Source: Acidobacteriota bacterium | GTDB lineage: Bacteria; Acidobacteriota; Thermoanaerobaculia; Thermoanaerobaculales; Sulfomarinibacteraceae | Length of the DNA stretch: 64,000 nucleotides | Assembly (NCBI GenBank): GCA_022340775.1 | Contig: JAJDNH010000029.1 | Coordinates: 1,653 to 65,652 of the forward strand | Direction of reading: 5' to 3' | Shown here: piece by piece, positions 575 to 20,445 of the stretch | Numbering within the stretch: position 1 is the first letter of the stretch | Layout of the letters: every line of letters begins with the position of its first letter | Program-made: the position numbers and the translations under genes | The notes under the pieces: model-generated | The model's input: only the letters and a program-made list of their open reading frames with translations | What the model was told of the DNA's origin: nothing | Database searches by the model: none

Positions 575-1630
575 GTGAACAAGACCATGACCACTGCGAG
601 CCTCGTTCTTGCTATGCTCGTCGCCACACTTGGCACCGCCGACGGAGGCACTCCTGCGGAAAAGGGGAAGGCCGTACCGAGCCCGGAGCGCTCGGTCATC
701 GAGCTTCCCGGCGGCGGCGGCAGGATCGGCTTCGACGACGTGGGCTACTCGAAGACGCTGAAGCGAATACTGCTGCCCGGCGGGCGAACCGGCAAGCTCG
801 ACCTCATCGATCCCGCCTCTGGCGCAGTGACTGCCATCACGGGCTTCAGCACCGCTCCGGCCTCCAGCCGCCACGGCGGCGGCATCACGTCGGTGGACCA
901 GGGTGGCGGCTTCCTGTTCGTATCCGACCGCACCGCCCGCACCGTGGACGTCGTCGACGCCGCCACACGGAAGATCGTGACCCACGCCTCCCTGGCCGGC
1001 GGCCCGGACTACGTGCGCTTCGTGGGCCCGACTCGCGAGCTGTGGGTGACCGAGCCGCACGAAGCACGGATCGAGGTCCTCGGCCTGCCGCCCGGAAAGG
1101 CGCCGGTGCCGTTCCACCAGACGTTCATCACGGTCCCCGGAGGACCCGAGTCGCTGGTCGTCGACGCCTCCCGTGGCCTGGCCTACACCAACCTGTGGCG
1201 GAACCAGACGCTGGCCATCGACCTGAAAAAGCAGTCCATCGTTTCTCGCTGGATCAACGGCTGCGCCGCGTCTCGCGGCCTGGCGCTCGATCGCGGCTCC
1301 AACCTGTTGTTCGTGGGTTGTGCCGAGGGCGGCGCTACCGTCCTCGACCTCGCTCACGGCGGCAAGGTCGTCGACACCGCGAAAGCCGGTGAGGGGGTCG
1401 ACATCATCGACTTCTCGCCGGTTCTCCGCCACCTCTACGTTCCCGGCGGACGCAGCGGAACCCTCTCCATCCTCGGGGTTTCCCCCGCCGGCAAGCTGAC
1501 GCTGCTCGGCGAGGTGGCCGCGGCAAAGGGGGTCCACGGCGTTGCCGCCGCCGATGGCAAGGCCTTCGTCCCCGACCCGGAGAACGGCCGCCTCCTGGTC
1601 TTCACCGACCCCTATCCCCGGACACGCTAA
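575..1630 (+). CDS. secreted beta-propeller repeat protein (YncE/YVTN-like)
   Basis: GTG start follows GGAGGA at 565-570. The N-terminal signal peptide is TASLVLAMLVATLGTADG. Repeated strand-rich segments are present (GGPDYVRF, GGPESLVVD, SRGLALD, LYVPGG). Confidence 0.6.
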   Translation: MNKTMTTASLVLAMLVATLGTADGGTPAEKGKAVPSPERSVIELPGGGGRIGFDDVGYSKTLKRILLPGGRTGKLDLIDPASGAVTAITGFSTAPASSRHGGGITSVDQGGGFLFVSDRTARTVDVVDAATRKIVTHASLAGGPDYVRFVGPTRELWVTEPHEARIEVLGLPPGKAPVPFHQTFITVPGGPESLVVDASRGLAYTNLWRNQTLAIDLKKQSIVSRWINGCAASRGLALDRGSNLLFVGCAEGGATVLDLAHGGKVVDTAKAGEGVDIIDFSPVLRHLYVPGGRSGTLSILGVSPAGKLTLLGEVAAAKGVHGVAAADGKAFVPDPENGRLLVFTDPYPRTR

Positions 1631-2988
1631 CTGATCTGGTGGCGCTTCATCTTGCGCCACAGGGTGTTGCGGGAGATCCCGAGGTCCTGTGCCGCACGTG
1701 TGCGGTTGCCGGCGTGACGGTCGAGCGCCTCGCGGATAGCCGCCGCCTCCGCCGCCTCCAGCGGGTTCGCCGTGGCGCCCGGGGGAGGTGGTGAGGCCAG
1801 CGAGCCACCCTGGATGTGGGGGGGCAGGTCGTCGCGGCCGATGATGCTGCCGCCGCACACCACGAAGGCGTGCTCGATGGCGTTCTCGAGCTCGCGCACG
1901 TTGCCCGGAAAGTGGTAGCGCATCAGCACGCCCATGGCTCGCTCCGAGATGCCGCCGATCCGTCTCCCCTGGAGGGCGTTGAAGCGCGAGATGAAGTGCT
2001 CGACGAGGAGTGGGATGTCCTCGGTACGAGAGCGCAGCGGCGGCACCGACAGCCTGACCACGTTGAGCCTGAAGTACAGATCCTGGCGGAAGCGGCCTGC
2101 CATGACCTCCAGTGACAGGTCGCGGTTGGTCGCCGCAACGACCCGGACATCGGCCTTGACCGGGTGCGTGGCGCCGAGAGGGGTGAACTCGCGCTCCTGA
2201 AGCACCCGCAGCAGCTTGACCTGAGCCGCGGGCGAGAGCTCACCGACCTCGTCCAGCAGGAGCGTTCCGCCCGCCGCCACAGCGAACCGCCCCGCCCGGT
2301 CCTGGTACGCGTCGGTGAACGCCCCCCGAACGTGGCCGAACAGCTCCGACTCGACCAGCGTCTCCGGAATCGCCCCGCAGTTGACGGCCACGAACGGCCC
2401 GGCCCGACGCGGCCCGAGGTTGTGGATGGCGCGGGCAATCAGCTCCTTGCCGGTGCCGGGCTCGCCCTCGATCAGGACCGTGCTAACGCTGTTGGCCACC
2501 AACGGTAGCAGCTCGCGCAGGTTCCGCATCCCGGGGCTCTTGGTGATAATGTCCTCGAGCGTGTAAGAGGCCTCCAGGGTGCGCCTGAGCATGGCCAGGT
2601 CGGACAGGTCGCGGAACATCTCCACGCCGCCGACCACCCGCCCCCCCTCGTCACGGAGCGCGGCCGTGCTCACCGCCACCGGCAGCTCCCGCCCGTCGCG
2701 GCGCACGATCCGCACCTCACGGTCGCGGTAGGCGGTGCCGCCTTCGATGCTGTTGAACAGGAAGCACGAGCCCTGGCAGTGGTTGCTGCGCAGGACCTTG
2801 CTGCACAGAAGACCCACCACCTGGTCGCGGCGCCAGCCGGTAATCTCCTCGGCAGCGTGATTGAACGAGGTAATCCGGCCATCCGCGTCGACAGTGAAGA
2901 TGCCGTGCGGCACGTGCTCGAAGATGAGAGCGTTGTAGCGGGGATCGAGGGGCATGTTCATGATATCAATGTGAGGCTTCTGCTCCAA
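1627..2988 (-). CDS. sigma54-dependent transcriptional activator with N-terminal PAS domain
   Basis: PAS segment FTVDADGRITSFNHAAEEITGW. AAA+ Walker A GEPGTGKELIARAIH. The sigma54-contact loop reads GAFTDA. C-terminal Fis-type HTH AAQDLGISRNTLWRKMKRH. Confidence 0.9.
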   Translation of the reverse strand: MEQKPHIDIMNMPLDPRYNALIFEHVPHGIFTVDADGRITSFNHAAEEITGWRRDQVVGLLCSKVLRSNHCQGSCFLFNSIEGGTAYRDREVRIVRRDGRELPVAVSTAALRDEGGRVVGGVEMFRDLSDLAMLRRTLEASYTLEDIITKSPGMRNLRELLPLVANSVSTVLIEGEPGTGKELIARAIHNLGPRRAGPFVAVNCGAIPETLVESELFGHVRGAFTDAYQDRAGRFAVAAGGTLLLDEVGELSPAAQVKLLRVLQEREFTPLGATHPVKADVRVVAATNRDLSLEVMAGRFRQDLYFRLNVVRLSVPPLRSRTEDIPLLVEHFISRFNALQGRRIGGISERAMGVLMRYHFPGNVRELENAIEHAFVVCGGSIIGRDDLPPHIQGGSLASPPPPGATANPLEAAEAAAIREALDRHAGNRTRAAQDLGISRNTLWRKMKRHQIS

Positions 2989-3011
2989 AATTGCAACATG
3001 TCACGGAACAG

Positions 3012-3031
3012 TTGTCACGATCTCGCGACAA
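3012..3031. promoter_or_regulatory. candidate enhancer (UAS) inverted repeat TTGTC-N10-GACAA
   Basis: The sequence TTGTCACGATCTCGCGACAA is centred about 110 bp upstream of the predicted sigma54 transcription start. It lies between the divergent activator gene and the redox operon. Confidence 0.3.
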
Positions 3032-3105
3032 CCGACTCTTGTCCCGCAACAGTCTCTTCCCCCAACTGATTCAGCCACAGTGAGTTCCCGTTTCGGTCCC
3101 GAGGA

Positions 3106-3120
3106 TGGCACACGGTTTGC
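3106..3120 (+). promoter_or_regulatory. sigma54 -24/-12 promoter (TGGCAC-N5-TTGC)
   Basis: TGGCACacggtTTGC has exact GG-N10-GC spacing. A sigma54 activator gene lies immediately divergent. The first operon gene follows, with GGAGG at 3156-3160 and ATG at 3171. Confidence 0.6.
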
Positions 3121-3170
3121 CTTGGACCACGGCGACAGGCATGCGCCCGGCGCACGGAGGAATACACCCA

Positions 3171-4565
3171 ATGGCGATTGAATGCTCGTACTACCTCGAA
3201 CCGGTCGACACTACCGACCTGCCGCGCCGCTTCCTGGAGGCGTTCGCTGCCATTCTCACTCATTCGAACTACGCGATGGCCCTCGACGCCGCGTCTCGCG
3301 TCAGCGCTCGCTGCGGTCGCTGCGCCTCGACCTGCCCCGTGTATCAGGCCAGCAACGACCCGCGCGACATCCCGTGCCTGCGCTCCGAGCTGGTGCTCAA
3401 CGTGTACCGTCGCTACTTCACGCCCGGTGGCGCCCTTTCCACGCGCCTCGGTTCCGGCTTCGAGATCGACGAGGCCTACATCAACACCATGGCCGAGGAG
3501 CTGTACCGCTGCACCGCGTGCCGCCGCTGCAAGCTCGAGTGCCCGATGGGCATCGACCACGGCCTCATCACTCACCTCGGCCGCTGGCTGCTGGCCGAGG
3601 TCGGGATCGTTCCCAAGGCGCTGCGGGTGGCGACCCGTGAGCAGCTGGAGGGCAAGACCAACAACACGTCGGCCATTCCGGCCGCCGCACTCATCGACAC
3701 CTGCGAGTTCCTGGAGGAGGACTGCGTCGACCTCCACGGCTTCAAGATCCACTTCCCCATCGACCAGGAGGACGCCGAGTACATCTTCTTCCCGGCGGTC
3801 AGCGACTACCTGCTCGAGCCCGACACGTTGATGGGCAACGCCGCCGTCATGACCGCCACCAACGCCTCGTGGACGATCGGCACACGCTACTTCGACGGCA
3901 TCAACTACGGTCTCTTCTACTCCGACCGCATGCTCGACCGCATCGTCAACATGGAGGTCGAGGAGCTCAAGCGGCTCAAGGCCCGCACCGTGCTGATCGG
4001 CGAGTGCGGCCACGCGTCGCGCTCCGCCAAGGCGTTCATCCGCACCTTCTGCGGCGGCAACCAGGCGCCCGAGGTGATCAACTGCATGGAGTACGCCCTG
4101 CGCATGGTCAACGAGGGACGGCTGGAGCTGCGCAAGGGCGCCATCGACGCCCGCGTGACCTACCACGACCCCTGCAACATCGCCCGCACGGGGTGGATCA
4201 TCGAGCAGCCGCGCGAGATCCTCCGTCACATTGCGACCGACTTCGTCGACATGACGCCGCACGGCCGCGAGAACTACTGCTGCGGCGGCGGCGGCGGCAC
4301 CGTCTCGATCGACGAGATCCGCTCCTTCCGCACCGGCGTCGGCGGGCGGACCAAGGCCGAGCAGATCCGGAGAACCGGAGCCACGATCCTGGTTTCGCCG
4401 TGCGCGAACTGCAAGAAGCAGCTGCGGGAGGTGTGCGAGGACAACGACCTCGAGCACGTGCAGGTCGTCGGCCTGCACGACCTCATCCTGAAGGCCATCG
4501 TCCCGCCCGCCGAGATGCGGGTCGAGAAGCAACCGGACCCCGAGTCAGAACCGGCCGGCTCATAG
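3171..4565 (+). CDS. HdrD/DsrK/HmcF-like iron-sulfur CCG-domain oxidoreductase subunit (cytoplasmic)
   Basis: Ferredoxin-type motifs CGRCASTCPVY and CTACRRCKLECPMG. Cys-rich CCG-type motifs YHDPCNIAR, NYCCGGGGG and SPCANCKKQ. No signal peptide. I prefer the ATG at 3171 (RBS GGAGG) to the ORF-track ATG at 3105, which overlaps the sigma54 promoter. Confidence 0.8.
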   Translation: MAIECSYYLEPVDTTDLPRRFLEAFAAILTHSNYAMALDAASRVSARCGRCASTCPVYQASNDPRDIPCLRSELVLNVYRRYFTPGGALSTRLGSGFEIDEAYINTMAEELYRCTACRRCKLECPMGIDHGLITHLGRWLLAEVGIVPKALRVATREQLEGKTNNTSAIPAAALIDTCEFLEEDCVDLHGFKIHFPIDQEDAEYIFFPAVSDYLLEPDTLMGNAAVMTATNASWTIGTRYFDGINYGLFYSDRMLDRIVNMEVEELKRLKARTVLIGECGHASRSAKAFIRTFCGGNQAPEVINCMEYALRMVNEGRLELRKGAIDARVTYHDPCNIARTGWIIEQPREILRHIATDFVDMTPHGRENYCCGGGGGTVSIDEIRSFRTGVGGRTKAEQIRRTGATILVSPCANCKKQLREVCEDNDLEHVQVVGLHDLILKAIVPPAEMRVEKQPDPESEPAGS

Positions 4566-4573
4566 GAGGCATC

Positions 4574-5275
4574 GTGGACACCTGGATCGAGCTCGCACGC
4601 GGACCGCTCTTCCGCATCGCCCTGGCCGCCCTGCTCATCGGCCTCGCCTACCGCCTCGGCTCGGCGGCAAGCCAGGTGATCCTGGCCTGGCGCCGTGCAG
4701 GAGACCGCCAGCTCCCCCTGCGCAGCGTGGTGACCGCAACCCTGTCCTGGCTGCTCCCCGTGCGGCTGCTCCGGCAACGGCCGCTGTACGGCATCGCGTC
4801 GCTGCTCTTTCACGTCAGCATCATCGCGTTACCGCTCTTTCTGGCCGGCCACGTGGTCCTGGTTCAGCCGTCGTTGCCGTTTGCATGGCCCCGGCTTCCG
4901 GGCGGCGTCGCCGACACCCTGTCGGTGGTGGCGTTCCTGGCCCTCGGCGCGGTCCTCGTCGGCCGGCTGGCCGTTCGCACCGCGCGCGTCCTGACCCGCT
5001 TTCAGGATGTCGCGGTGCTTGCCCTGCTGCTGTTTCTCGTCGGTTTCGGCTTCCTCGCCGCTCACCCGGCGCTGTCGCCGTTTCCGGCGCGCACCATGCT
5101 CCTGCTCCATATCCTGGCCGGCGATCTGGCCCTGGCCCTCACTCCGGTGACCAAGATCGCCCACTGCATCGTCTACCCGTTCACCCAGCTCATCTTCGAG
5201 CTGGCATGGCACTTCCCCGCCGACAGCGGCCGCCACGTGGTGACCGCCCTGGGTAAGGAGGGTGAGCCCGTATGA
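4574..5275 (+). CDS. NarI/DsrM/HmcE-like integral membrane cytochrome b subunit
   Basis: GTG at 4574 follows AGGAGG at 4564-4569. About five hydrophobic helices carry conserved-looking His residues (FHVSIIALPLFLAGH, LLLHILAGD, KIAHC). It lies in the frame of ORF 3869..5275. Confidence 0.65.
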   Translation: MDTWIELARGPLFRIALAALLIGLAYRLGSAASQVILAWRRAGDRQLPLRSVVTATLSWLLPVRLLRQRPLYGIASLLFHVSIIALPLFLAGHVVLVQPSLPFAWPRLPGGVADTLSVVAFLALGAVLVGRLAVRTARVLTRFQDVAVLALLLFLVGFGFLAAHPALSPFPARTMLLLHILAGDLALALTPVTKIAHCIVYPFTQLIFELAWHFPADSGRHVVTALGKEGEPV

Positions 5276-6060
5276 AGCACTTTGCGATCCTCACCGACGT
5301 CACGCGCTGCATCGGCTGCGAGGCGTGCGTCGAAGCTTGCCAGAAGACCAACGGCACCGGCGACGATGCACCGCATCGATGGCAGCCCGATCCCAACGCC
5401 CTGTCATCGAGCCGCTGGACCACCCTCGCCCACACCCGGGAGGGGCGGTTCGTCCGCGTCCACTGCCGGCACTGCCTCGACCCGTCCTGCGTTGCGGCGT
5501 GTCCGGTCGGCGCCATGCGCCGAACGCCGCAGGGGGCAGTGGTCTACGACCCGGAAATCTGTATGGGGTGCCGCTACTGCATGATCGCCTGCCCGTTCCG
5601 GATGACGCGGTACGAGTGGAGCTCCGCAGTGCCGAAGGTCCGCAAGTGCATCCTCTGCTACCAGAAGGTCATGTCCGGCGAGCTCGAGCAGCCGGCGTGC
5701 ACCGCGGCGTGTCCGACGAAGGCAACCGTGTTCGGCGAGCGCGAGGCGCTGCTGGCCGAGGCACGACGGCGCCTGGCTGCCGAGCCCGAACGCTACATCC
5801 AGCACATTTGGGGTGAGCACGAGGTGGGCGGCACGTCGGTTCTCTACCTGTCCGACGTTCCGCTGGACGAGGCTGGCTGGCCGCGCACCCTCGGCGACCA
5901 CCCTCGCCCCAAGCTGGCCCGCGAGGTGCTCGGCACGGTGCCGTGGACCTTCGCCGGCGTCGCCGTCGCCTGCTATGGCGTCCACTGGACCCTGGACCGC
6001 CGCCGCAAGGTTGCAGCGGCCGAGCACTCCCACGAGGACGAGGATGGAGGCGAACAGTGA
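5272..6060 (+). CDS. 4x[4Fe-4S] ferredoxin-type subunit (HybA/DsrO/HmcB/NrfC-like) with C-terminal TM helix
   Basis: Four Cys clusters: CIGCEACVEAC, CRHCLDPSCVAAC, CMGCRYCMIAC and CILC...CTAAC. C-terminal hydrophobic helix VPWTFAGVAVACYGVHW. ATGA overlap with the upstream gene. No twin-arginine signal is possible because an in-frame TGA sits at 5263. Confidence 0.85.
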   Translation: MKHFAILTDVTRCIGCEACVEACQKTNGTGDDAPHRWQPDPNALSSSRWTTLAHTREGRFVRVHCRHCLDPSCVAACPVGAMRRTPQGAVVYDPEICMGCRYCMIACPFRMTRYEWSSAVPKVRKCILCYQKVMSGELEQPACTAACPTKATVFGEREALLAEARRRLAAEPERYIQHIWGEHEVGGTSVLYLSDVPLDEAGWPRTLGDHPRPKLAREVLGTVPWTFAGVAVACYGVHWTLDRRRKVAAAEHSHEDEDGGEQ

Positions 6061-7997
6061 GCGGCGCGAACAACTCCCGTCTGGTGCTGACCCGCGCCGT
6101 CCTCTGGCTGGTGGTGGGCATCGCCGCCGTGGTGGCCGTGAACCGCTTCGCGCGCGGCCTGGGCGCCACCACCGCCCTCACCGACGCGACGCCGTGGGGC
6201 CTGTGGATCGGCTTTGACGTCCTTGCCGGCGTCGCGCTCGCAGCTGGCGGCTTCGTGATCGCGGCAACCGTCTACATCTTCCACCTCGACCGCTATCACG
6301 CGATCGTACGCCCGGCGGTGCTGACGGCGTTCCTGGGCTACGTCGCGGTCGTGCTCGGGCTGCTGATGGACCTCGGCCGACCGTGGAACATCTGGCGACC
6401 CATGCTCTTCTGGCAGCCTCACTCGCCGCTATTCGAAGTTGCCTGGTGCGTGATGCTCTACCTGACCGTGCTGGCCCTGGAGTTCGCGCCGGTGGTGTTC
6501 GAGGGGCTACGGCTCGAGCGCCCTCTTCGCATCATGCGGCGGCTCACGCTGCTCCTGGTGATCGCCGGCATCGGCCTCTCCACCCTCCATCAGTCCTCCC
6601 TCGGCACCCTGTTCCTGCTCGCCCGCGACCGGCTCCACCCGCTCTGGTATTCGCCGATCCTGCCGCTTCTCTTTCTGGTCTCGGCAGTGGCCCTCGGTCT
6701 GATGATGGTGACCTGTGAGAGCCTGGCCAGCTCCTGGCTGTTCCGGCACCGGCCCGAGTGGCCACTGCTTGGCGGCCTCACGCGGGCAGCGGCCGTCGTC
6801 TCCCTGCTCTACCTCGCCCTCCGCCTCGGCGATCTCGCTTGGCGCCACCAGCTCGTCTACCTGCTCGAGGGCTCGTGGGCGTCGGTGCTGTTCGTCTTCG
6901 AGATCGGCATCAGCGCGGTCGTTCCCGCCCTTCTCTTCCTGCTTCCGTCGACCCGCACGAGCCACGCCGGCGTCGCGACCGGCGCCGTGCTCGGGGTCGG
7001 CGGCTTCGTCCTCTACCGGGCCGACGTCGGCGGAATCGCCCACCTCGCGGTCGGCGGCCACCACTACGTCCCCGCCCTCACCGAGATCGTGGTCAGCGCC
7101 GGCGTGGTGTCGGCGATGGCGTTGGTGTTCCTCTTCCTGGTCGAGCGGTTTCCGGTGTGGGAGGAGCGCCCGCAGGTCCCGGGCCACTTTACGGCGCCGA
7201 TGCGGGATCGCGTGACCGGCACCTTCTTCGGCGGGCCGTGGTTCTCGCGCGCTCACCTGGGGGCGGCCGGGCTCGCGCTGGGCATGGTGCTCGGCGTGGC
7301 GCTGGTTGAGGCCGACGCCCCAACGTCGGCGGCTGCCCGGTTGCGGCCGGTGCCCGCCGCCCGTACGGCGCTGATCCGTGAGGTCAAGCGCAACCCCAGT
7401 CCCGGTCATCGCTTGGAAGTCCTATCACCCGAGCAGGTCACCCAGGACCCGGACGGCATCGAGGCCGCGCTCCTGGTCGGCGGCGGGAGGAACGGGCGCG
7501 TCGTCCTCTTCCCGCACCAGGCCCACCAGCAGCGGCTGGGCGGCCCGGCCTCGTGCGGGAAATGCCACCACCGCAACCTCCGTCACGACCGCGGGACGCC
7601 GTGTACCGCCTGCCATCGCGACATGTATGCCGCCACCGACACCTTCGCCCACCAGCCGCACGTCGAGGGGCTCGGTGGCAACGCTTCCTGCACGAAATGC
7701 CACCAGGCCGGGACAGCACCGGCTCGGGCCTCCGCCCGCGCCTGCGACGCTCCGGCCTGCCACGGTGGTGACGTCAGCACGGCCGCCGTGGCCATCAACC
7801 GCTCCAAGCTGCCGGCGGGGTACGCCCCCGGATACCGCCGCGCCATGCACACGTTGTGCATCGGCTGCCACACCCGTCACGAACAGAAGACCAAGGTCAC
7901 CACGCCCTACCTCAGCCGCTGCACCACCTGCCACCGCGATCGAGCGGTCGAACCCGAGCCGGCCACCGTTGTTGTGGCCCGGCTGGAGGCACCATGA
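6057..7997 (+). CDS. NrfD/HybB/DsrP-like polytopic quinone-interacting membrane subunit fused to a C-terminal hexahaem cytochrome c domain
   Basis: GTGA overlap with the upstream stop. About 10 NrfD-type helices plus an 11th helix (GAAGLALGMVLGVALV). Haem-binding motifs follow: CGKCH, CTACH, CTKCH, CDAPACH (CX4CH), CIGCH and CTTCH. Confidence 0.8.
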   Translation: MSGANNSRLVLTRAVLWLVVGIAAVVAVNRFARGLGATTALTDATPWGLWIGFDVLAGVALAAGGFVIAATVYIFHLDRYHAIVRPAVLTAFLGYVAVVLGLLMDLGRPWNIWRPMLFWQPHSPLFEVAWCVMLYLTVLALEFAPVVFEGLRLERPLRIMRRLTLLLVIAGIGLSTLHQSSLGTLFLLARDRLHPLWYSPILPLLFLVSAVALGLMMVTCESLASSWLFRHRPEWPLLGGLTRAAAVVSLLYLALRLGDLAWRHQLVYLLEGSWASVLFVFEIGISAVVPALLFLLPSTRTSHAGVATGAVLGVGGFVLYRADVGGIAHLAVGGHHYVPALTEIVVSAGVVSAMALVFLFLVERFPVWEERPQVPGHFTAPMRDRVTGTFFGGPWFSRAHLGAAGLALGMVLGVALVEADAPTSAAARLRPVPAARTALIREVKRNPSPGHRLEVLSPEQVTQDPDGIEAALLVGGGRNGRVVLFPHQAHQQRLGGPASCGKCHHRNLRHDRGTPCTACHRDMYAATDTFAHQPHVEGLGGNASCTKCHQAGTAPARASARACDAPACHGGDVSTAAVAINRSKLPAGYAPGYRRAMHTLCIGCHTRHEQKTKVTTPYLSRCTTCHRDRAVEPEPATVVVARLEAP

Positions 7998-8416
7998 GCG
8001 AGCCACAACCCGCGCGTGCCCCGGTGATCGCCATCATCGACGACGAGCAGGACATCATCACCTACCTGCGCGTCGCGCTCGAGGATCACGGCTTCCGTGT
8101 CGTGGCCACGACCGACCCCGCGAGCGCCCCGGCTCTGCTCGAGCAGGCCTGCCCCGATTTGATCTGCCTTGACATCCTGATGCCCGAGCACACCGGCCTC
8201 GCCCTCTACGCCGAGATCATGGGAAGCCCGCGTCTGGCGTCGGTGCCGGTCGTGATCCTGAGCGGCCTCAACGCCAACGACGAGCTCCTCAACCAGGTTT
8301 GGAACACCAACAACCTGCCGGCGCCGGCGAGCTTCATCGAGAAGCCCGTGGACATCGAGCACCTGCTTCGAACCCTCCGCGCCGTGCTGGGTCAGCAGGT
8401 GGGGGTGGCGCCATGA
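7994..8416 (+). CDS. single-domain response regulator (receiver only)
   Basis: Receiver residues IIDDE, LICLDILMP, VVILSG and FIEKP. ATGA overlaps on both sides. Confidence 0.85.
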   Translation: MSEPQPARAPVIAIIDDEQDIITYLRVALEDHGFRVVATTDPASAPALLEQACPDLICLDILMPEHTGLALYAEIMGSPRLASVPVVILSGLNANDELLNQVWNTNNLPAPASFIEKPVDIEHLLRTLRAVLGQQVGVAP

Positions 8417-10218
8417 CCGCCGTCGCGTGGCATCCCGAGTGGCGGGCCGAGCTGGTCGACCAGTTCCTCGCCGGCGTCATGGTCCTCGACCGCAGCCTGG
8501 CCATCGCCGACCATAACCGCGCCTTCACCGAGATGTTCGGTGAGGCGCGCGGGAACAAGTGCTACAAGGTGCTCAAGGGCCGGTCAGAGCCGTGCGGCAT
8601 CTGCGCCGCAATGAGCACCTTCAACGATGGCCGCCGCAGGGTGTTGGAGCAGGTGGGGCAGGACAGGGAGGGGCGCCCCGTCAACTACCTGGTGCAGGTC
8701 GGGCCGCTGCGCGACCCCGCCGGGGACATCGCCTTCACCGCTGTCATCACCACCGACCTCACCGCCACCAAGCGGCTGCAGCGCGAGTACCAGGCTCTGT
8801 TCGAGAAGGTCCCCTGCTACGTCGCGGTGCTCAACCGGGACTTCCGAGTGGTCAAGGCCAACGAGCAGTTTCGGCGCACGTTCGGGGAGCCGACCGGCGA
8901 GCACTGCCACGAGATGTTCAAGAAAAGCCCCGAACGGTGCGCGGGGTGTCTGGTCGAGCAGACGTTCCGCGACGGCGAACCCCATACGGCCCCTCACACG
9001 GGCATCGCCTGTGACGGCGAAACCACCCACTACCTCGCTTTCACCACACCTCTGCTCAACGAGAGCGGCGAGGTGAGGCACGTCATCCACATGTCGCTCG
9101 ACGTCACCGAAGTCAGGGCCCTGGCCGACGAGTTGGGACGCGCCAACGAGATCCGCCGGGCGCTTGTCGAGAGCTCGCTGGACGCCATCGCCGTCACCGA
9201 CGAGCACCGTCGCGTGGTGATGCTCAACCGGGCGGCCGAGCAGCTGTGGGGAGTCTCCCGCGACGATCTCGTGGGCCGGACGGTACCCCGCTGGATGCTG
9301 CCGGCCGAGTTGGCCCCGGTGCTGAAGAACGAGGCCGAGCAGGAGCTGGTCCACGACGCTCGAGTCTCGACCGCCTCCGGCGTCCAGGTCCCGGCGCGGA
9401 TCGGCGCCGTCTCGCTCTCGGTCGAGAACCGCTTCTCGGGCGCCGCGGTGTTCGCGCAGGACCTTCGCGAGCTGAAGAAGCTCGAGCGGGAGAAGCTGGA
9501 GGCGGAGAGGTTGGCTGCGGTGGGTCAGACCGTGGCCGGCCTTGCCCACGGCATCAAGAACATCCTCACCGGGCTCGAGGGCGGCATGTACGTGACCTCG
9601 TCCGGGCTCAAGCGCGGTGACCAGGGACGCATCCGCCAGGGCTGGGAGATGCTCGAACGCAACATGTCACGGGTCTCCGACCTGGCGAAGAACCTGCTCG
9701 CATTCTCGCGTGGGGATCACCCGGAACCCGAGCTGGTGCGGCCGGCCGACATCGTCCACGACGTGGTGACGCTCTTTCGTGACGGCGCAGCCCAGCACGG
9801 GATTGAGCTGGAGGGAGTCGTCGACGACTCCGTCGAGCCGGCCTGGATGGATCCAGAGGCCATCCACAGCTGTCTCGCCAACCTGGTCTCCAACGCCATC
9901 GACGCCTGCCTGGTGAGCCAGGACCCTGGATGCCGGGTCGAGCTCCACCTCCGCGAGGCCGACGCCGCCATCATCTTCGAGGTGGTGGACAGCGGCTGCG
10001 GCATGGACTACGAGGTCAAGCAAAAAGCGTTTACCAGCTTCTTCACCACCAAGGGCAAGGGCGGAACGGGCCTCGGCCTGCTCCTCACCCGTAAGATAGT
10101 CCAGGAGCACGGCGGTTCGATCACCCTGGAAAGCACACCGGGCCAGGGCAGCACCTTCCGCCTGCGCTTCCCGCGGGCGCGGCTGCCGGAGCCACAGGGC
10201 AAGGAGTCGACTTCATGA
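8413..10218 (+). CDS. soluble multi-PAS sensor histidine kinase
   Basis: No TM segment. PAS-like repeats are present and the first two carry C-X10-C-X2-C motifs. H-box LAHGIKN. ATPase boxes NLVSNAIDA, DSGCGM and GGTGLGL. Confidence 0.9.
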   Translation: MTAVAWHPEWRAELVDQFLAGVMVLDRSLAIADHNRAFTEMFGEARGNKCYKVLKGRSEPCGICAAMSTFNDGRRRVLEQVGQDREGRPVNYLVQVGPLRDPAGDIAFTAVITTDLTATKRLQREYQALFEKVPCYVAVLNRDFRVVKANEQFRRTFGEPTGEHCHEMFKKSPERCAGCLVEQTFRDGEPHTAPHTGIACDGETTHYLAFTTPLLNESGEVRHVIHMSLDVTEVRALADELGRANEIRRALVESSLDAIAVTDEHRRVVMLNRAAEQLWGVSRDDLVGRTVPRWMLPAELAPVLKNEAEQELVHDARVSTASGVQVPARIGAVSLSVENRFSGAAVFAQDLRELKKLEREKLEAERLAAVGQTVAGLAHGIKNILTGLEGGMYVTSSGLKRGDQGRIRQGWEMLERNMSRVSDLAKNLLAFSRGDHPEPELVRPADIVHDVVTLFRDGAAQHGIELEGVVDDSVEPAWMDPEAIHSCLANLVSNAIDACLVSQDPGCRVELHLREADAAIIFEVVDSGCGMDYEVKQKAFTSFFTTKGKGGTGLGLLLTRKIVQEHGGSITLESTPGQGSTFRLRFPRARLPEPQGKESTS

Positions 10219-10805
10219 GACCAGACACGGACACTCCGCCTCACCAGACCGCAGAGACCGGTACCGGAGGGCAACGATCCTTGAGCGACCTCTCGATCCT
10301 GGTCGTCGACGACGAGCCGGATGTTGCGGTGTACCTCGCATCAGTGCTCGAGGACGCGGGTTTTGCAGTGCTCACGGCAGGCGACGGCGAAGAAGCGATG
10401 CGGCTGATTCGCAGCCGGCGGCCCGCCTTGATCTCGCTCGACCTGGTGATGCCGGGCAAGTCAGGGATCCGCCTCCTCGCCGAGCTGCGTCGCGACCGGG
10501 AGCTCAGGCGCATTCCGGTGGTGATCGTGTCCGGCCACGCCCACGATGCAGGTGTGCGCCGCGACCTCGACGAGGTGCTGGCTGACAGCTCCATGGTCGG
10601 ACCCTCGCTGTGTCTGGACAAGCCGATTACTCCTGAAAAGTACGTGCGCCACGTATGTGAGCTGCTCGGAGTGGAAGCACCCGACGAAGCTGAGCGGACC
10701 GACCCGACCGATGAGCTGCGCCGCGACGCCGTGGACCTTCTGGGCACTGCCGACCAGGACACCCTGGAGGCCGTGCTCGCGGAGCTGCGAAGGAGGAACC
10801 GATGA
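10215..10805 (+). CDS. single-domain response regulator with N-terminal extension
   Basis: Receiver residues VVDDEPD, LISLDLVMPGKSG, VVIVSG and CLDKP. ATGA overlaps with both neighbours. Confidence 0.85.
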   Translation: MRPDTDTPPHQTAETGTGGQRSLSDLSILVVDDEPDVAVYLASVLEDAGFAVLTAGDGEEAMRLIRSRRPALISLDLVMPGKSGIRLLAELRRDRELRRIPVVIVSGHAHDAGVRRDLDEVLADSSMVGPSLCLDKPITPEKYVRHVCELLGVEAPDEAERTDPTDELRRDAVDLLGTADQDTLEAVLAELRRRNR

Positions 10806-11209
10806 CACGCGAGTCCTCACCCCGCCGCATTCTGATCATCGACGACGACCCCGATGTGGTCACGTACCTGGAAACCGTCTTCCGCGACAACGGGTACGAG
10901 CCCTTGTGCGCGACCGACGGCGATGCCGGCCTCGAGCTGGCACGCGCCCAGCTTCCCGACCTCATCTGCCTGGACATCTCGATGCCGGCCCCGAGCGGCG
11001 TCCGGGTCTACCGCGAGCTCCGCGGAGATCCCAAGCTGTCGGGTATCCCGGTCGTGATGGTCACCGGCGTCCTACGGCAGTTCGAGGAGTTCATCGGCAG
11101 GCGCCGTCAGGTCCCACCCCCGGACGGCTACATCGCCAAGCCGTTCCAGGTCGAGGAGCTGCTGAGCGTCGTGCGCCGCCTCCTCCGGACGCCGGCCGCA
11201 ACAAGCTAG
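10802..11209 (+). CDS. single-domain response regulator
   Basis: Receiver residues IIDDDPD, LICLDISMPAPSG, VVMVTG and YIAKP. ATGA overlap with the upstream gene. Confidence 0.85.
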   Translation: MTRESSPRRILIIDDDPDVVTYLETVFRDNGYEPLCATDGDAGLELARAQLPDLICLDISMPAPSGVRVYRELRGDPKLSGIPVVMVTGVLRQFEEFIGRRRQVPPPDGYIAKPFQVEELLSVVRRLLRTPAATS

Positions 11210-11451
11210 TCATTCGCCGGGAAGGACGACTGTCGCGGTTGGGTCGGACGCTCCCGCGCGGTCGTCGTGTGCTTGGTGTGTACCATTCTGATACGTGTGA
11301 CTCCAGTCACCTGCCCTTCACTTGACCGTGACGCCCCACATCAGCTACATTTGAAGTTGAACCGGCAACTTAGGCTCAACGCTCCGCCTGGACGGCGGGC
11401 ACTGTGTGCGAGGTCGAGAGGTCTCGCAGCCGCACCTTCCTCGGAGGCAGC

Positions 11452-12672
11452 ATGGACGGCCGTGGCCGTGCACCAGAGCGCTTGAACTCGCCGCAACCGC
11501 GGCTGGGCTCGGTCGACGTCATCCCACATCTTTACGACGCCGCAGTCCAGCCGTCCGCCTGGGCCGGGGCGCTCGAGGCTGCTGCCGAGCTCCTTCAGGC
11601 TGCCGCAGTCATCCTCGAGTGCGGCCCACCGTGCGCAGGCCTGATCCACATCATCGCCTCATCGGGGCTCTCTGCAGAGCTCGTCACAGCCTACAACCGG
11701 AACCACATCGGTAATGATGAGCTGCTGCAGGAGGCTCTGGCACGTCCGGCGGGGATGCTGATCTCCAGCCGCCTGGCCCTATCCGATGCGGCCCTCGAAC
11801 GGTCCTCGCTGTTTCGCAACCTGCTGCGGCCGGCTGGTCTTCTGGAGATGGCGGGGACTGCCTTCGTCAAGGAGGCAGACCTGTTTGCGGGCGTGTGGAT
11901 CGCCCGCGGCGCCGGATCCCCGACCTTCTCCGAAACCGAGTATCAGCTCCTGCGCGAGCTCCTCCCGCACATGGAACGCGTCGTCACGGTCCGAAACCGG
12001 GTCGCTCAGGCGGAGCAGATGGCAGAGCTCACGGCCGGCGCCTTCGACCGCGTCGCCATGGGCGTCGTGCTGATGGATGGGCTCGGCCGGCCGCTGCTGA
12101 CCAACCGCGAGGCTCGCAACATCGGCAACGAGGGCGACGGATTCACCATCCTGCCGGATGGGCCGGCCGCCGCCAGGCACGACGACACCAGAATGCTCCG
12201 CGCCGCCATTCGGAAGGCCGGAGGCGCAGACCGCTCGACCTCCGGCCCGGCCGGGAAGGCCCTGCGGCTCGCCAGACCCTCTGGCCGCTCCGAGTACCAG
12301 GTCGTGGTGCTGCCTCTGCCCCAACGATGCCAGCCGGCCGACGCCAGCGGCGTGGTCGCGGTGCTGTTCGTCACCGACCCCGAGAGATCCCACAGCCCGA
12401 TCGACCATCTGGTAGCTGACCTGTTCGGGCTCACCGAGGCCGAGGTTCGCCTCGTCATGCAGCTGCTGGGGGGCAGCACTCTCACCGACGCAGCAGAGAC
12501 CCTCGGGTTGTCACGGAACACGGTTCACTCGCAGCTCGCCAGCGTCTTCCGCAAGACCGGCACCAGCAGGCAGAGCGACCTCGTGAGGGTGGTGCTGCGG
12601 GCACTGGCGCCGGTTCGGGGCCCCGACGACTCCTCGGGGTTCTACATCGTTCCAGACGACGGACGTTGGTGA
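11452..12672 (+). CDS. LuxR-family transcriptional regulator (C-terminal HTH)
   Basis: C-terminal segment LTEAEVRLVMQLLGGSTLTDAAETLGLSRNTVHSQLASVFRKTG. The N-terminal region IPHLYDAAVQPSAWAGAL is typical of orphan LuxR-type regulators. The start is uncertain: ATG at 11452 after GGAGG, or GTG at 11404. Confidence 0.75.
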   Translation: MDGRGRAPERLNSPQPRLGSVDVIPHLYDAAVQPSAWAGALEAAAELLQAAAVILECGPPCAGLIHIIASSGLSAELVTAYNRNHIGNDELLQEALARPAGMLISSRLALSDAALERSSLFRNLLRPAGLLEMAGTAFVKEADLFAGVWIARGAGSPTFSETEYQLLRELLPHMERVVTVRNRVAQAEQMAELTAGAFDRVAMGVVLMDGLGRPLLTNREARNIGNEGDGFTILPDGPAAARHDDTRMLRAAIRKAGGADRSTSGPAGKALRLARPSGRSEYQVVVLPLPQRCQPADASGVVAVLFVTDPERSHSPIDHLVADLFGLTEAEVRLVMQLLGGSTLTDAAETLGLSRNTVHSQLASVFRKTGTSRQSDLVRVVLRALAPVRGPDDSSGFYIVPDDGRW

Positions 12673-12740
12673 GAGCGCGCCCGGCCGGAGACCCACCTTC
12701 CGACCACGAGCCTGGCCCGTGACAGCGCAATGGACGACCC

Positions 12741-13253
12741 TCATTCGCCAACCCGCACCCGCGGGCCCTCGTCCGTGTCTTCGGGATCGTCCTGCTCCCA
12801 GGCGGATCTCCCGGCCACCATGATGTTGCGGATCGTGCCCGCGGGTGAGCGGGCCTTGATCCTCCAGGCCAAACGGTCAGGGAAACGGTCATACGTCAGC
12901 ACCGGCTTGCCGAGGTCCTCGTTGGGCATCGCAAACTCGGCCGCCCGCCGCAGCACCCTGTCCGGATCCAGCCAGTCCGCAGCATCCGGTACACCTTCGA
13001 AGCTGTCCGACCTGCGCCGAAACGAAACCTGGCGAATCAACAGCAGATTACAGTCCAGCTGCAGGTACCCAACCATATGATGCTTGATCGTCACCGGAAC
13101 CAGCCACGAATGAGGACCGCCCCGCGGCTGGCTGACCATCAGGGGCGTGCCCACGACACCCCGCTGGCGCATCAGCTCCTCTCCCAGCTGGCCGGCGGCC
13201 ATCATTCCCCGGACGCGTCGAAGAACGTCCTTGGGCGACCGCTTCTCGGTCAT
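12741..13253 (-). CDS. hypothetical protein
   Basis: A 170-aa ORF starting MTEKRSPKDV with balanced composition and slightly lower local GC. No motif recognised. Confidence 0.35.
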   Translation of the reverse strand: MTEKRSPKDVLRRVRGMMAAGQLGEELMRQRGVVGTPLMVSQPRGGPHSWLVPVTIKHHMVGYLQLDCNLLLIRQVSFRRRSDSFEGVPDAADWLDPDRVLRRAAEFAMPNEDLGKPVLTYDRFPDRLAWRIKARSPAGTIRNIMVAGRSAWEQDDPEDTDEGPRVRVGE

Positions 13254-13520
13254 GACTCGGCCAGGCTCGGATGCATGCGTTCGTCTCCACAGGCCGGCGC
13301 GGTACACGTGGTTGCGGCCGGGGAGTAGCGTCTCTGTACAAGCACCCGGCCCACCGGCTGATACCGGCATTAATGGCGCGGGCGACAGGCGTCGTCATCA
13401 CCCAAATGGGCTAACGAAATGAACAGCTCCCCGAATCGCTTGTATCTACCGGACCGCGACATCCGCGCCGTAGCGAACCGGCGCAGACGCTGCGCGGCCT
13501 GGCCACGAAAGGAGAGCTGA

Positions 13521-14507
13521 ATGCACGCACGCGAACTGGGAAAGGACGGCCTGACCGTGTCCGCGATCGGTCTGGGGTGCATGGGGATGTCCGAGTTCTA
13601 CGGACCGAGCGAGGAGGAGCAGTCCATCGAGGTTCTGCACCACGCCCTGGGCGCCGGCATCAACTTCTGGGACACCGCGGACATGTACGGGCAGGGTAAG
13701 AACGAGCATCTCGTGGGAAGGGCGCTGCGCGGCCACCGGGACGAGGTCGTCCTGGCAACGAAGTTCGGGATCGTGCGGGGCGAGGACGCGAGCTTCCGCG
13801 GAGTGTGCGGCACTCCCGAGTACGTCAAGCAGGCCTGCGACGCCAGCCTGAAGCGCCTCGGCATCGACCACATCGACCTGTACTACCAGCATCGCGTCGA
13901 CCCGCAGGTGCCGATCGAGGACACCGTCGGTACGATGTCCGATCTGGTTGCGGCTGGCAAGGTTCTCCACCTCGGCCTCTCGGAAGCCTCCGCGCCAACC
14001 CTCCGCAGGGCGGCCGCGGTCCATCCGATCACGGCGCTCCAGTCCGAGTACTCGCTATGGAGCCGCGATCCGGAGGACCAGGTACTGCCCGCCTGCCGAG
14101 AGCTCGGCATCAGCCTGGTGGCCTACAGCCCCCTCGGCCGCGGGTTCCTGAGCGGCGCCATCCAGAGCATCGACGATCTGGCCCCGGACGACTACCGCCG
14201 CTTCAGCCCGCGCTTCCAGGGAGAAAACTTCGAGAAGAACCTCGAGCTGGTGAGACGGATCGAGGAGCTTGCCGCCGTCAAGGGCTGCACTCCGGCCCAG
14301 CTGGCGCTCGCGTGGCTGATGGCACAGGGACCGGAGGTGGTGCCGATCCCGGGGACCCGACGCATCGAGCGTCTGGAGGAGAACGCCGCGGCGACCGAGA
14401 TCGAGCTGTCGGCCGAAGAGCTCGCCCGTATCGATGAGGTGGTGCCCCGGGACCTGGTGGTCGGTGCACGCTACCCCGAGGCGGCGATGTCGTTCATCGA
14501 CGGCTAA
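13521..14507 (+). CDS. aldo/keto reductase
   Basis: Family motifs [29 protein letters not shown] and [10 protein letters not shown]. Confidence 0.9.
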
Positions 14508-14875
14508 CTCGCTGTCTGTCGCGACCGACAGCGGTGGCAGCCGCCGCCCCATCCCCCGCGCCCGGCCGGCTCTCCCGTGCCAGTGGAGCAACAACCGAGC
14601 CCGGCCGCGCTATGATCCAATCCAGCACGCGGCGGCCGGTGCGGTGAGGCCCGTCTATGGCTGTAACCGGCAAACCCGGCCTTCGTAAGAAACTGGGGAC
14701 CGAGACGCGCCCGACGCGCCAGCCGGCGGCGGGCCCCCGCCACGGTTCAGCAACCACAAGAACGCGTCAGTCCAGGCGCCTTGCCAGGTGACCGCGCCGA
14801 CCTTTGGCCGGGAGCGTTCCGAAGGCTGCAAAGGCGCCTGCGGCGGATAGCGCACGAGCTGGGAGGATTGGAGTC

Positions 14876-16309
14876 ATGAAGAGCATCGTCTCGTCGTTCA
14901 TTCTCATCGTGGCCGCGGCGGCGGCGCCCGCGCTGGCCCAGTACACTCCCGTCAAAGGCGAGGCGCCCTCGCCACCGGCGGGGTTGAGCTCAACCATGTT
15001 GAACGAGCTGCAGAGCTCGTTCGAGATGACGCCGCAGATGCGGGCCACCCGCAACGCCCTCGCGAACCACAGTATTCACTCTTTGGCTATCGACCAGGAC
15101 GTCGTCAACCGCACCGACAACCTGTTCACGCACGAGATCAAACACCCCGGCTCCATCACCAACCAGGCGTCTTCCGGCCGCTGCTGGCTGTTCGCCGGTC
15201 TGAACATCCTGCGGCCGGTGGTCATGAACAAGTTCAACATGAAAGACTTCACGCTCTCGCAGGCGTACGAGCAGTTCTTCCAGAAGCTGGAGGCCGCCAA
15301 CCGATCCCTGGAGCTGGCCATCACGCTGCGAGACGAGCCCCTGCACAGCCGCCGCATGGACACGCTGCTCAAGCACGTGATCAGCGACGGCGGCAACTGG
15401 AACTACGTTCAGGCGCTGATCGAGAAGTACGGCGCGGTGCCGGAGAGCGTGATGCCGAACGGCTATGCCGCCTCTCACACGCGGGAGATGAACGCACTGA
15501 TGGCCGCGCGCCTGCGCAAGGCCGTCGCCCAGATCCGCAAGCAGGCTGGGGAGGGCGCCGATGTAGCCACCCTGCGGCAGCTCAAGACGGGCGTCCTCAA
15601 GGACGTCTACAAGATCCTCGTCCTCTGCCTCGGCCAGCCCCCCCAGACCTTCACCTGGCGCTACGAGACGAAGGATGACAAGGTCAGCGCCCTCGAGACC
15701 TACACCCCGCTCTCTTTCTACCAGAAGTTCCTGGGCGCCGACCTCAACGACTTCGTGCGCTTCGTCAACTACCCGGGCCAGCCAATGCACGCCAACCTCG
15801 AGTGGGCGTGGGAACGCAACATGGCCGACCGGCCCGACCTCGAAGCGGTCAACGTCACCATGAAGGAGCTCGAGGACATGTCTCTCAAGTCCGTCCTTGC
15901 CGATGAGCCGGTCTGGTTCGGCGCCAACTCCGCCGCCGACGGTGACTACAAGAAGGGACTGTGGATCGACGGCATCGTGGACGCGACCGACGTGTTCGGC
16001 ATCGACTTCTCGATGGACAAGGCCGACGCCCTGGCCTACGACAACGGCACCCCCAACCACGCGATGGTGTTCACCGGGGTGGACGTCCAGGACGGCGCGC
16101 CAGCCAAGTGGAAGGTCGAGAACTCGTGGGGCACCAAAGCTGGAGACAAGGGATGGTTCACGATCGGCGCCCGTTGGTTCGACAGACACGTCTTCGAGGT
16201 CATCATCAACAAGCGGTTCGTGCCGCCCGATCTTCTGAAGCTGACAGACCAGAAGGCCTTGGTGCTGCCGCCCTGGGACCCCTTCAGCGACTGGGCCAGC
16301 GGTCTATAG
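14876..16309 (+). CDS. pepC: C1-family aminopeptidase C / bleomycin-hydrolase-like cysteine peptidase with signal peptide
   Basis: Active-site context QASSGRCWLFAGLN, then HAMVFTGVD and ENSWG. C-terminal PPWDPF tail. N-terminal MKSIVSSFILIVAAAAAPALAQ. ATG at 14876 follows GGAGG. Confidence 0.8.
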   Translation: MKSIVSSFILIVAAAAAPALAQYTPVKGEAPSPPAGLSSTMLNELQSSFEMTPQMRATRNALANHSIHSLAIDQDVVNRTDNLFTHEIKHPGSITNQASSGRCWLFAGLNILRPVVMNKFNMKDFTLSQAYEQFFQKLEAANRSLELAITLRDEPLHSRRMDTLLKHVISDGGNWNYVQALIEKYGAVPESVMPNGYAASHTREMNALMAARLRKAVAQIRKQAGEGADVATLRQLKTGVLKDVYKILVLCLGQPPQTFTWRYETKDDKVSALETYTPLSFYQKFLGADLNDFVRFVNYPGQPMHANLEWAWERNMADRPDLEAVNVTMKELEDMSLKSVLADEPVWFGANSAADGDYKKGLWIDGIVDATDVFGIDFSMDKADALAYDNGTPNHAMVFTGVDVQDGAPAKWKVENSWGTKAGDKGWFTIGARWFDRHVFEVIINKRFVPPDLLKLTDQKALVLPPWDPFSDWASGL

Positions 16310-16442
16310 AGGGTGCTGGCACGCGCCCCAGCTGCTTGAATTGAACAGGGGTCGCCGCGACGGTACCATGGAGAAGACGTCTCGGCTCAAACCAGGTCGG
16401 CGGCGCCCGGCGGGCCGCCAAGCAGCACACGAGGGGTTCCCC

Positions 16443-20342: not shown

Positions 20343-20363
20343 GCCACCGTTATCGGACGGGCC

Positions 20364-20396: not shown

Positions 20397-20445
20397 GTAG
20401 TCCTGAGCCTCTACGGACAATCTCCTACCCCGCGGTGAAGAGGAA

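Follow-up and report, generated by a model that had tools for sequence, protein, structure and literature searches.

Why should a membrane electron-transfer complex share its operon with a soluble histidine kinase and three receiver proteins? The question is raised by eight genes on the forward strand of a 64,000-nucleotide (nt) stretch of acidobacterial DNA (GCA_022340775.1, contig JAJDNH010000029.1, positions 1,653 to 65,652; family Sulfomarinibacteraceae), referred to here as the window. Between positions 3171 and 11209, the genes K, M, O and Pc, which encode the subunits of the putative complex, are followed by R1, HK, R2 and R3, which encode a receiver, the kinase and two further receivers (Table 1). 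We read this locus as a sigma54-controlled complex of the Tmc/Hmc/DsrMKJOP kind accompanied by that family's own signalling cassette, in which PAS domains bearing conserved cysteines (Cys) would sense the signal and the receivers would act by protein contact; a probability of about 0.55 is assigned to this reading. Domain calls were made with Pfam and NCBIfam profiles, and the curated NCBIfam equivalog cut-offs were used for family membership. The closest genome locus belongs to an uncultured Thermoanaerobaculia metagenome-assembled genome (MAG), with 86-94% protein identity, and the GC content of the window is about 68%.

Conservation of the Link Between Complex and Cassette

Two scans of related loci, numbered below with the prefix L, approached the link from either side. 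The scan anchored on Pc covered 83 loci, 50 of which were informative: Pc was full-length, M and O were present, and the downstream sequence extended over 3 kb or more. A relative of HK lies directly after Pc in 32 of these 50 loci; none of the 32 is without a receiver, and two or more are present in 30. The 18 loci without a kinase are also devoid of receivers, the exception being L029, with a divergent kinase. Kinase and receivers are thus present or absent jointly, as an all-or-none cassette. Loci with the cassette are distributed over at least nine phyla, comprising Acidobacteriota (several classes), Planctomycetota, Gemmatimonadota, Ignavibacteria/Melioribacteraceae, Zixibacteria, Bacteroidota, Thermodesulfobacteriota, Myxococcota and Pseudomonadota. 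A 4-nt overlap at the Pc-to-receiver or Pc-to-kinase junction is found again in L001, L003, L004 and L164. An earlier note on this DNA, written from the sequence, had made its proposal depend on synteny of the redox and signalling genes in relatives, and, with both halves occurring jointly in 32 of 50 loci from many phyla, the proposal is not refuted on this count. The same note had considered such a tight fusion to be rare, which is wrong for this protein family: here the pairing is the norm, and the same cassette stands beside bona fide TmcBCD and Hmc-like clusters.

The scan anchored on the kinase covered 80 metagenome loci, 15 of them well flanked (at least 6 kb on both sides). K-M-O-Pc lies directly upstream of the kinase in 8 of the 15, and a DsrK/TmcB-type gene is found within 10 kb in 14. 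The protein with the CCG domain is the most persistent partner of this kinase family, across three complex architectures. In L138, where TmcD (546 bits), TmcC (314 bits) and TmcB (746 bits) all score above their cut-offs, the Tmc genes precede HmcA-, HmcB- and HmcC-like genes and then a receiver-kinase-receiver-receiver series. TmcB at 638-742 bits is carried by L105, L098, L103 and L122, the cassette flanking TmcBC in L105, while the remaining partners are DsrMK-like pairs or lone DsrK-like genes (301-324 bits).

Operon Organization and Predicted Sigma54 Promoter

The eight open reading frames (ORFs), their order and their seven junctions are all as the earlier note described them. Six junctions are start/stop overlaps of 4 nt, with ATGA at 5272, 7994, 8413, 10215 and 10802 and GTGA at 6057; the seventh, between K and M, is an 8-nt gap (4566-4573) containing part of a GGAGG ribosome-binding site. 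Only the start of K had to be moved. The K ORF opens at 3105, and the earlier description placed the start at 3105/3106; the stretch 3106-3120 is, however, the sigma54 box. ATG 3171 is the most likely start, being preceded at a distance of 9 nt by GGAGG and giving a protein of 464 amino acids (aa), in line with homologues of 464-468 aa. By a rough count, about one other 4-nt overlap occurs among some 40 crude ORF calls in the window, so the run of six does not appear to be a background property of the genome.

The promoter, an exact match to TGGCAC-N5-TTGC, is placed 51 nt before ATG 3171. When six related intergenic regions (the window and five related loci) were aligned, the columns TGG..A.....TGC proved invariant, and in 14 of 53 loci the sequence preceding K contains a match of at least 8/10, the background being 6%. 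Both a -24/-12 box at the proper distance and a divergently encoded protein with a Sigma54_activat domain are therefore present, as in sigma54 operons, and dependence on sigma54 is predicted. Within the unit, a simple scan detected no sigma70-like promoter, and no convincing terminator was found; the few terminator-like matches there, of which one, a weak one, is on the forward strand (5012-5030, inside M), do not exceed the frequency of shuffled background. A single transcript over 3171-11209 would be consistent with the overlaps and with the lack of splitting signals. Taken with the conserved box and the divergent activator, the single sigma54-driven unit postulated in the earlier note is the simplest reading.

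Table 1. Features of the locus, in window coordinates, with the basis of each assignment.
Feature	Position	Strand	Basis
Sigma54 enhancer-binding protein (PAS, AAA+, HTH_8)	1627..2961	-	Pfam Sigma54_activat 2.3e-66, PAS, HTH_8
Candidate upstream activator site (putative function)	2999..3053		Repeat search
Predicted sigma54 -24/-12 promoter, TGGCACacggtTTGC	3106..3120	+	Sole exact match in the 64-kb window
K, cytoplasmic DsrK/TmcB/HmcF (HdrD-like) iron-sulfur protein	3171..4565	+	Pfam CCG 3.7e-14, Fer4_8
M, TmcC/HmcE/DsrM (NarI-like) membrane anchor	4574..5275	+	NCBIfam TmcC, HmcE; transmembrane scan
O, HmcB/HybA/DsrO-like ferredoxin	5272..6060	+	Pfam Fer4_11 3e-20
Pc, NrfD/HmcC/HybB-like protein with hexahaem cytochrome c	6057..7997	+	Pfam NrfD 1.5e-18, Cytochrom_CIII 2.5e-10
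R1, stand-alone receiver, 140 aa; optional cassette member	7994..8416	+	Pfam Response_reg 5.6e-17
HK, soluble histidine kinase with three PAS domains	8413..10218	+	Pfam PAS_4 (three), HisKA, HATPase_c 9.7e-26
R2, receiver with C-terminal extension; core cassette member	10215..10805	+	Pfam Response_reg 3.1e-19, profile positions 1-89 only
R3, stand-alone receiver, 135 aa; core cassette member	10802..11209	+	Pfam Response_reg 4.8e-19

The candidate activator site, situated about 55-105 bp upstream of the -24 box, consists of an inverted repeat (GTTGTCACGA/TCGCGACAAC, 3011-3032) flanked by the direct repeats TGTCACGGAACAGT (2999-3012) and TGTCCCGCAACAGT (3040-3053). Among the closest relatives, its TGTCACGGAACAGTTGTCAC block is kept in L004 and L001. 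The divergent activator ORF opens at TTG 2988, but since homologues align from residue 9-10, ATG 2961 is its likely start. Its PAS domain carries a C-x8-C-x3-C motif (GLLCSKVLRSNHCQGSC, residues ~55-75), whose three Cys show a conservation of at least 90% among 32 homologues; the spacing in the kinase is C-x10-C-x2-C. An activator gene lies nearby in 24 of 43 loci and tends to accompany the cassette. A direct path from kinase to activator through a receiver domain on the latter was considered and rejected, as this domain is absent from the window protein and from five longer relatives. In the DsrMK-linked loci L133, L143, L154, L157 and L158, the activator ORF follows the kinase and encodes 577-605 aa; the additional N-terminal ~140-175 aa have no Pfam match at E <1e-6 and may be either an unrecognised domain or the product of an over-extended start.

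The genes flanking the operon in the window (an aldo-keto reductase, a C1 peptidase, an MFS transporter and a radical-SAM protein) are unrelated to it, as are those in L001-L003, which marks the module itself as the conserved unit. Flanks differ at every locus examined, an observation consistent with a module that moves as a unit, and toxin-antitoxin pairs (MazE/PIN, VapB/PIN, ParE/Phd) lie a few kb from it in L003 (16015-16658) and L164 (1209-2649). In L086 (15187-21432), K-M-O-Pc and a full cassette are followed about 3 kb downstream by a second cluster, M-K-(gap)-O-P, which is Tmc/Hmc-like by gene order alone and is succeeded by an R2-like receiver. Downstream of R3 in the window lies the sole sigma70-like promoter match of the interval 1500-13000 (11322-11351), and after it a 422-aa protein (11404-12672) whose C-terminus has a weak helix-turn-helix of LuxR/GerE type and whose N-terminal part has no recognised domain. 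Scans for Rfam families and tRNA genes gave no matches anywhere in the window.

The Electron-Transfer Complex

The four structural subunits are predicted to provide a complete cofactor wire. Its periplasmic end would be the hexahaem cytochrome c; the four [4Fe-4S] clusters of O and the two b haems of M would come next, and the two [4Fe-4S] clusters and CCG-type catalytic site of K would form the cytoplasmic end. The cofactor ligands of K, M, O and Pc are conserved across 15-96 homologues. K possesses two [4Fe-4S] motifs, one CCG domain and no transmembrane segment in a hydropathy scan, and its conserved Cys in 66 homologues are C48/51/55, C114/117/120/124, C279, C335, C370/371 and C411/414. 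M has at least five transmembrane segments, and conservation among 77 homologues is 90% or higher for the four His (H80, H93, H179 and H197) proposed to bind its two b haems. O contains 16 conserved Cys, corresponding to four [4Fe-4S] clusters, and a C-terminal transmembrane anchor at 219-237. In Pc, an NrfD-like part (residues 1-~375) and one more transmembrane segment lead to a periplasmic domain of cytochrome c3 type, with about 11 helices in total by hydropathy; five CxxCH and one CxxxxCH haem sites and six distal His are invariant in 15 sequences.

All four subunits score below the NCBIfam equivalog cut-offs, and the complex is therefore a distinct relative of Hmc, Tmc and DsrMKJOP. K reaches 279 bits with DsrK (cut-off 400), 197 with HmcF (750) and 184 with TmcB (735); M, 108 with TmcC (240) and 100 with HmcE (275); O, 227 with HmcB (420; aligned from profile position 37) and 103 with DsrO (200); and Pc, 304 with HmcC (550) and 40 with DsrP (350). 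Sequence searches of solved structures returned for K a single match, to an unrelated 1042-aa reductase, and for Pc a weak match to the high-molecular-weight cytochrome c. Fusions of the Pc type are common, with thousands of protein-database matches and at least 597 loci in species-representative genomes, the best 80 of which are all in MAGs.

O begins right at its first cluster motif (M-x1-4-AILTDVTKCIGC), so that neither a Tat nor a Sec signal could be accommodated at any of about 70 related loci (L001-L083). It nevertheless keeps its C-terminal transmembrane anchor followed by RRRK, as does the exported, tail-anchored HybA, and the HmcB-like protein of the Tmc-type locus L138 does possess the N-terminal region missing from O. 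The N-terminal PRRFLEAF of K was considered as a Tat signal with which O might be co-exported and was rejected, because it misfits RRxFLK, lacks a hydrophobic core and lies in a region homologous to cytoplasmic TmcB. In L156 (7165-8304, reverse strand), a K-like gene has an in-frame TGA at the position of Cys279 of the window K (WPE*GHA versus GEC-GHA); this codon may encode selenocysteine, which would mark the position as redox-active.

The Kinase and Its Triple-Cysteine PAS Domains

The earlier note had called HK a soluble PAS kinase, a description upheld by a hydropathy scan, which predicted no transmembrane segment, and by the three PAS domains that Pfam recognises. Its closest NCBIfam family is AtoS (228 bits), and H379 in the AHGIKN motif of the DHp domain is invariant. 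The first PAS domain contains C50, C61 and C64; the second, C135, C165, C176 and C179; and the third is ordinary. These Cys-bearing domains (Cys-PAS below) share the consensus G..CyevyK.r...C..C.a..tF.DG, and the C-x10-C-x2-C triad is invariant in 65 PAS copies from 40 kinases. Long kinases have two Cys-PAS domains, the second with a fourth invariant Cys in a VPC motif, and whether they comprise three, two or one PAS (~600, 490 and 370 aa, respectively), kinases in these contexts always retain a PAS_4 domain with the triad. An exhaustive search with the second domain yielded about 1,000 clusters at E <=1e-10, the exact motif being present in 146 of the 150 top representatives; 47 of the 66 longer family members scanned were histidine kinases.

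An AlphaFold 2 (AF2) model of the second domain shows a confident PAS fold, with a predicted local distance difference test score of 91.6, in which the triad (four Cys in this domain) sits in the helical region between beta2 and beta3. The first Cys of the triad aligns with the flavin-adduct position of LOV domains. Foldseek comparison of the model with the PDB placed LOV, NifL and DosP nearest, at no more than 21% identity and with no cofactor indicated; the Cys-PAS profile gave generic PAS matches only among solved structures, none of which has the Cys triad. Kinase and activator each present three invariant Cys at the place where PAS domains hold cofactors, and the Cys-PAS domains of the kinase may hold a metal, an iron-sulfur centre or a redox-active set of thiols.

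A published parallel is NreB of Bacillus licheniformis, whose PAS domain holds a [2Fe-2S] cluster through C-x2-C-x11-C and senses sulfide (PMC13478379). Like HK, NreB is soluble, and its three conserved Cys occupy the helical region of the PAS domain that holds the cofactor, where a fourth protein ligand is not conserved (PMC13478379). In contrast, its spacing is the reverse of the C-x10-C-x2-C of HK, the sequence relationship is undetectable beyond the PAS fold, and NreB is not among the top structural matches. Because of these differences, we infer rather than assert a cofactor or redox role for the Cys-PAS.

The Receivers

In R1, R2 and R3 the phospho-acceptor residues are intact, with the DD pair, the phospho-accepting D, the S/T and the K all kept, and an insertion separates the S/T-G strand from the KP motif, as the earlier note had reported on both counts; the insertion proves to be conserved within each receiver type, with its own sequence in each. 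R1, present in some loci only, has a conserved sGl...p.P..fieKP. R2 has HArD...tmsGPg.YLEKPV in the alpha4-beta5 region and a helical C-terminal tail of about 45 aa, both conserved in 68 homologues, while R3 has the motif vppP.gyf.KP (consensus of 71 homologues). The note had described all three as output-less; R1 and R3 stand alone, but R2, with its conserved extension, is not a bare receiver.

Its term phosphorelay had to be abandoned. No Hpt domain was found by Pfam in any of the eight proteins, and the tail of R2 has no His, so that the genes constitute a branched two-component set of one kinase and three receivers rather than a strict phosphorelay. The invariant H379, the HATPase_c domain and the conserved DD, D, S/T and K residues of the receivers are those of a two-component system. 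The best NCBIfam family for all three receivers is DVU0259 (NF045717), at 77, 78 and 100 bits for R1, R2 and R3, below the cut-off of 160, and receivers in Tmc-linked and DsrMK-linked loci also match this family best (72-114 bits). The gene DVU0259 adjoins the tmc operon. A literature search on DVU0258, DVU0259 and DVU0260 found nothing useful.

Link to Sulfur Metabolism

In several phyla, the K-M-O-Pc cluster, whether accompanied by the cassette or not, has the genes dsrA-dsrB-dsrD-(dsrL)-(dsrN)-(dsrC) as its immediate downstream neighbours. This arrangement was found in L002 (15349-21606), L018, L029, L041, L051, L060, L099 and L164/165 (13338-21058), L165 being part of a 6.35-Mb contig. In those lineages, the K-M-O-Pc complex occupies the place beside dsrAB where dsrMKJOP is expected. 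Just upstream in L002 is a dsrMK-like pair that has a receiver and a kinase of its own.

Papers on acidobacterial dsr genes list "dsrMKJOP" and mention neither a kinase nor an NrfD-cytochrome fusion. The K-M-O-Pc complex may be what metagenome studies record as DsrMKJOP in such genomes.

Proposed Mechanism and Alternative Explanations

According to the reading favoured here, the complex would move electrons between the periplasmic cytochrome or quinone pool and a cytoplasmic thiol/disulfide or sulfur-carrier substrate, which could be DsrC-like where dsrAB is adjacent. The Cys-PAS of the activator would sense a cytoplasmic redox or sulfur signal and switch the operon on, and the co-translated kinase would read the same kind of signal through its own Cys-PAS domains and phosphorylate R1-R3. 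Having no DNA-binding output, the receivers would act by protein contact, through their alpha4-beta5 faces and the tail of R2, their likeliest targets being the complex (K) or the activator. The result would be fast post-translational tuning superimposed on transcriptional control.

Several points weigh against this scheme. Three of its elements, namely the signal, the Cys-PAS cofactor and the receiver targets, are inferred. The linkage of kinase and CCG protein in 14 of 15 loci is set against a chance rate near a random kinase that is estimated rather than measured. The absence of an export signal from O in about 70 loci leaves the topology of the periplasmic half unexplained. Moreover, 18 of 50 related complexes (36%) are without the cassette and about half are without a nearby activator, so that the regulation is dispensable in many of them. 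Finally, no dsr genes are found within the 64-kb window, a point that concerns the proposed cytoplasmic substrate.

A different view of the same linkage is that the complex itself is the sensor, electrons from the periplasm or the quinone pool reaching the CCG site of K and K then directly reducing or oxidising the Cys triad of the kinase PAS, or its cluster. The assembly as a whole would thereby serve a branched two-component system as its redox-sensing input across the membrane. The kinase is almost obligately linked to DsrK/TmcB-type genes, even where these amount to an M-K pair or a lone K-like gene, and Pc, R1 and HK are translationally coupled here and in the four relatives with overlapping junctions. 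Such a transfer would also suit the established thiol/disulfide chemistry of CCG proteins such as HdrD and DsrK, and the three or four invariant Cys in each sensor PAS. However, since 18 of the 50 complexes have neither kinase nor receiver, the complex is not merely a sensor; its full respiratory-type cofactor set and its location in dsr clusters in several lineages argue for a metabolic role. Contact between K and the kinase remains putative, and a similar Cys-PAS is found in the activator, for which contact with the complex is not required. We regard this explanation as rather unlikely.

The receivers might instead act in trans on the receiver-less activator, in the manner of a split NtrC, in which case the cassette would autoregulate its operon and the linkage would be ordinary co-localization of regulator and target. 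By its core, the kinase belongs to the NtrB/AtoS/ZraS type, which usually partners sigma54 activators, and the activator, which has no receiver domain here or in relatives, tends to co-occur with the cassette and is encoded directly after the kinase in several loci. Against this, three conserved receiver types exceed the needs of autoregulation, the activator has a sensor PAS of its own, and no known case of a stand-alone receiver steering an enhancer-binding protein in trans is cited here; the explanation seems unlikely. A role of the signalling genes in some unrelated process (motility, biofilm formation or a stress response, for instance), with the operon merely carrying them, is very unlikely. 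Although the receivers have no recognisable output and the sequence names no target for them, the cassette stays with DsrK/TmcB-type genes over at least nine phyla, three architectures and changing flanks, a persistence that chance hitch-hiking would hardly explain. The sigma54-controlled complex with a cassette of its own remains the preferred reading.

Significance

Anaerobic energy metabolism based on sulfur depends centrally on Tmc, Hmc and DsrMKJOP, although next to nothing is known of how cells regulate these complexes, and what TmcB and HmcF do is an open question as well. Over at least nine phyla and three architectures, a kinase/receiver/activator cassette with an uncharacterised triple-Cys PAS has stayed attached to CCG complexes, so that their regulation can be addressed directly in experiments on a single soluble kinase domain and several small proteins. 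A more far-reaching idea, improbable in our estimation, is that the triple-Cys PAS domains of kinase and activator form a dedicated reader of DsrK/TmcB/HmcF-type CCG chemistry, with the complex as a transmembrane redox antenna and the three receivers feeding back onto complex and promoter. The CCG subunit could act directly on the Cys or iron-sulfur centre of the kinase, or the kinase could sense the same sulfur-carrier or thiol substrate. If true, this would be an unrecognised signalling pathway common to sulfate reducers and many uncultured phyla. The variant in which the hexahaem domain is fused to the NrfD-like subunit (K-M-O-P::hexahaem) is itself widespread and, in several acidobacterial and other lineages, takes the place of dsrMKJOP beside dsrAB; it thus matters for the inference of sulfur metabolism from metagenomes.

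Comparison with Known Systems

Tmc and Hmc clusters with adjacent histidine kinases and regulators have already been described in Desulfovibrio (D. vulgaris Hildenborough) and Desulfococcus multivorans (PMC5109826). The locus resembles them in its modules, which correspond to TmcB/HmcF (CCG protein of the cytoplasm), TmcC/HmcE (b-haem anchor), HmcB (periplasmic ferredoxin), HmcC (NrfD-like subunit) and a cytochrome c with several haems, and in the kinase and receiver genes alongside; the identical Cys-PAS kinase/receiver cassette stands at the Tmc loci L138 and L105. It differs in its K-M-O-P order, in the lack of TmcD and HmcD, in an O without a signal peptide, and in the fusion of a 6-haem domain to the NrfD-like subunit, where those systems have a separate cytochrome with 4 or 16 haems. 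Further differences are the acidobacterial host, the presence of the family in many phyla that are not sulfate reducers, and sigma54 control through a PAS activator.

On the scores given above, membership in none of the three families was retained. For TmcABCD, a TmcD-like gene and a separate cytochrome are also missing; for HmcABCDEF, the six haem sites and the absence of HmcD add to the low scores, the module composition being otherwise the same. In the case of DsrMKJOP, neither a trihaem DsrJ nor, in the window, any dsr gene accompanies the complex, and the NrfD part of Pc is far nearer to HmcC/HybB than to DsrP. DsrK is nonetheless the best family for K, the M, K, O and P modules correspond, and relatives adjoin dsrAB.

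The hmc operon of D. vulgaris ends in rrf1, encoding a response regulator, and rrf2. It is comparable as a transmembrane redox-complex operon ending in regulatory genes that include a receiver, but it has one receiver and the Rrf2 repressor and is not known to include a kinase, and we know of no description of a Cys-PAS sensor or of sigma54 control for it. In ArcB and PrrB/RegB, including the cbb3 oxidase-PrrBA pathway, activity is set by redox-active Cys or by respiratory electron flow, which is the same logic as that proposed for a complex acting as sensor. These kinases are, however, membrane-bound and not known to be encoded in the operon of the complex they monitor, and homology of the sensor domains is not evident.

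Redox-complex clusters with adjacent signalling genes are, accordingly, known already, though unexplained. What appears to be new is the K-M-O-P::hexahaem variant, its spread far beyond the sulfate reducers and the all-or-none character of its cassette, as do the near-obligate linkage of kinase and CCG protein over three architectures and the triple-Cys PAS shared by both regulators.

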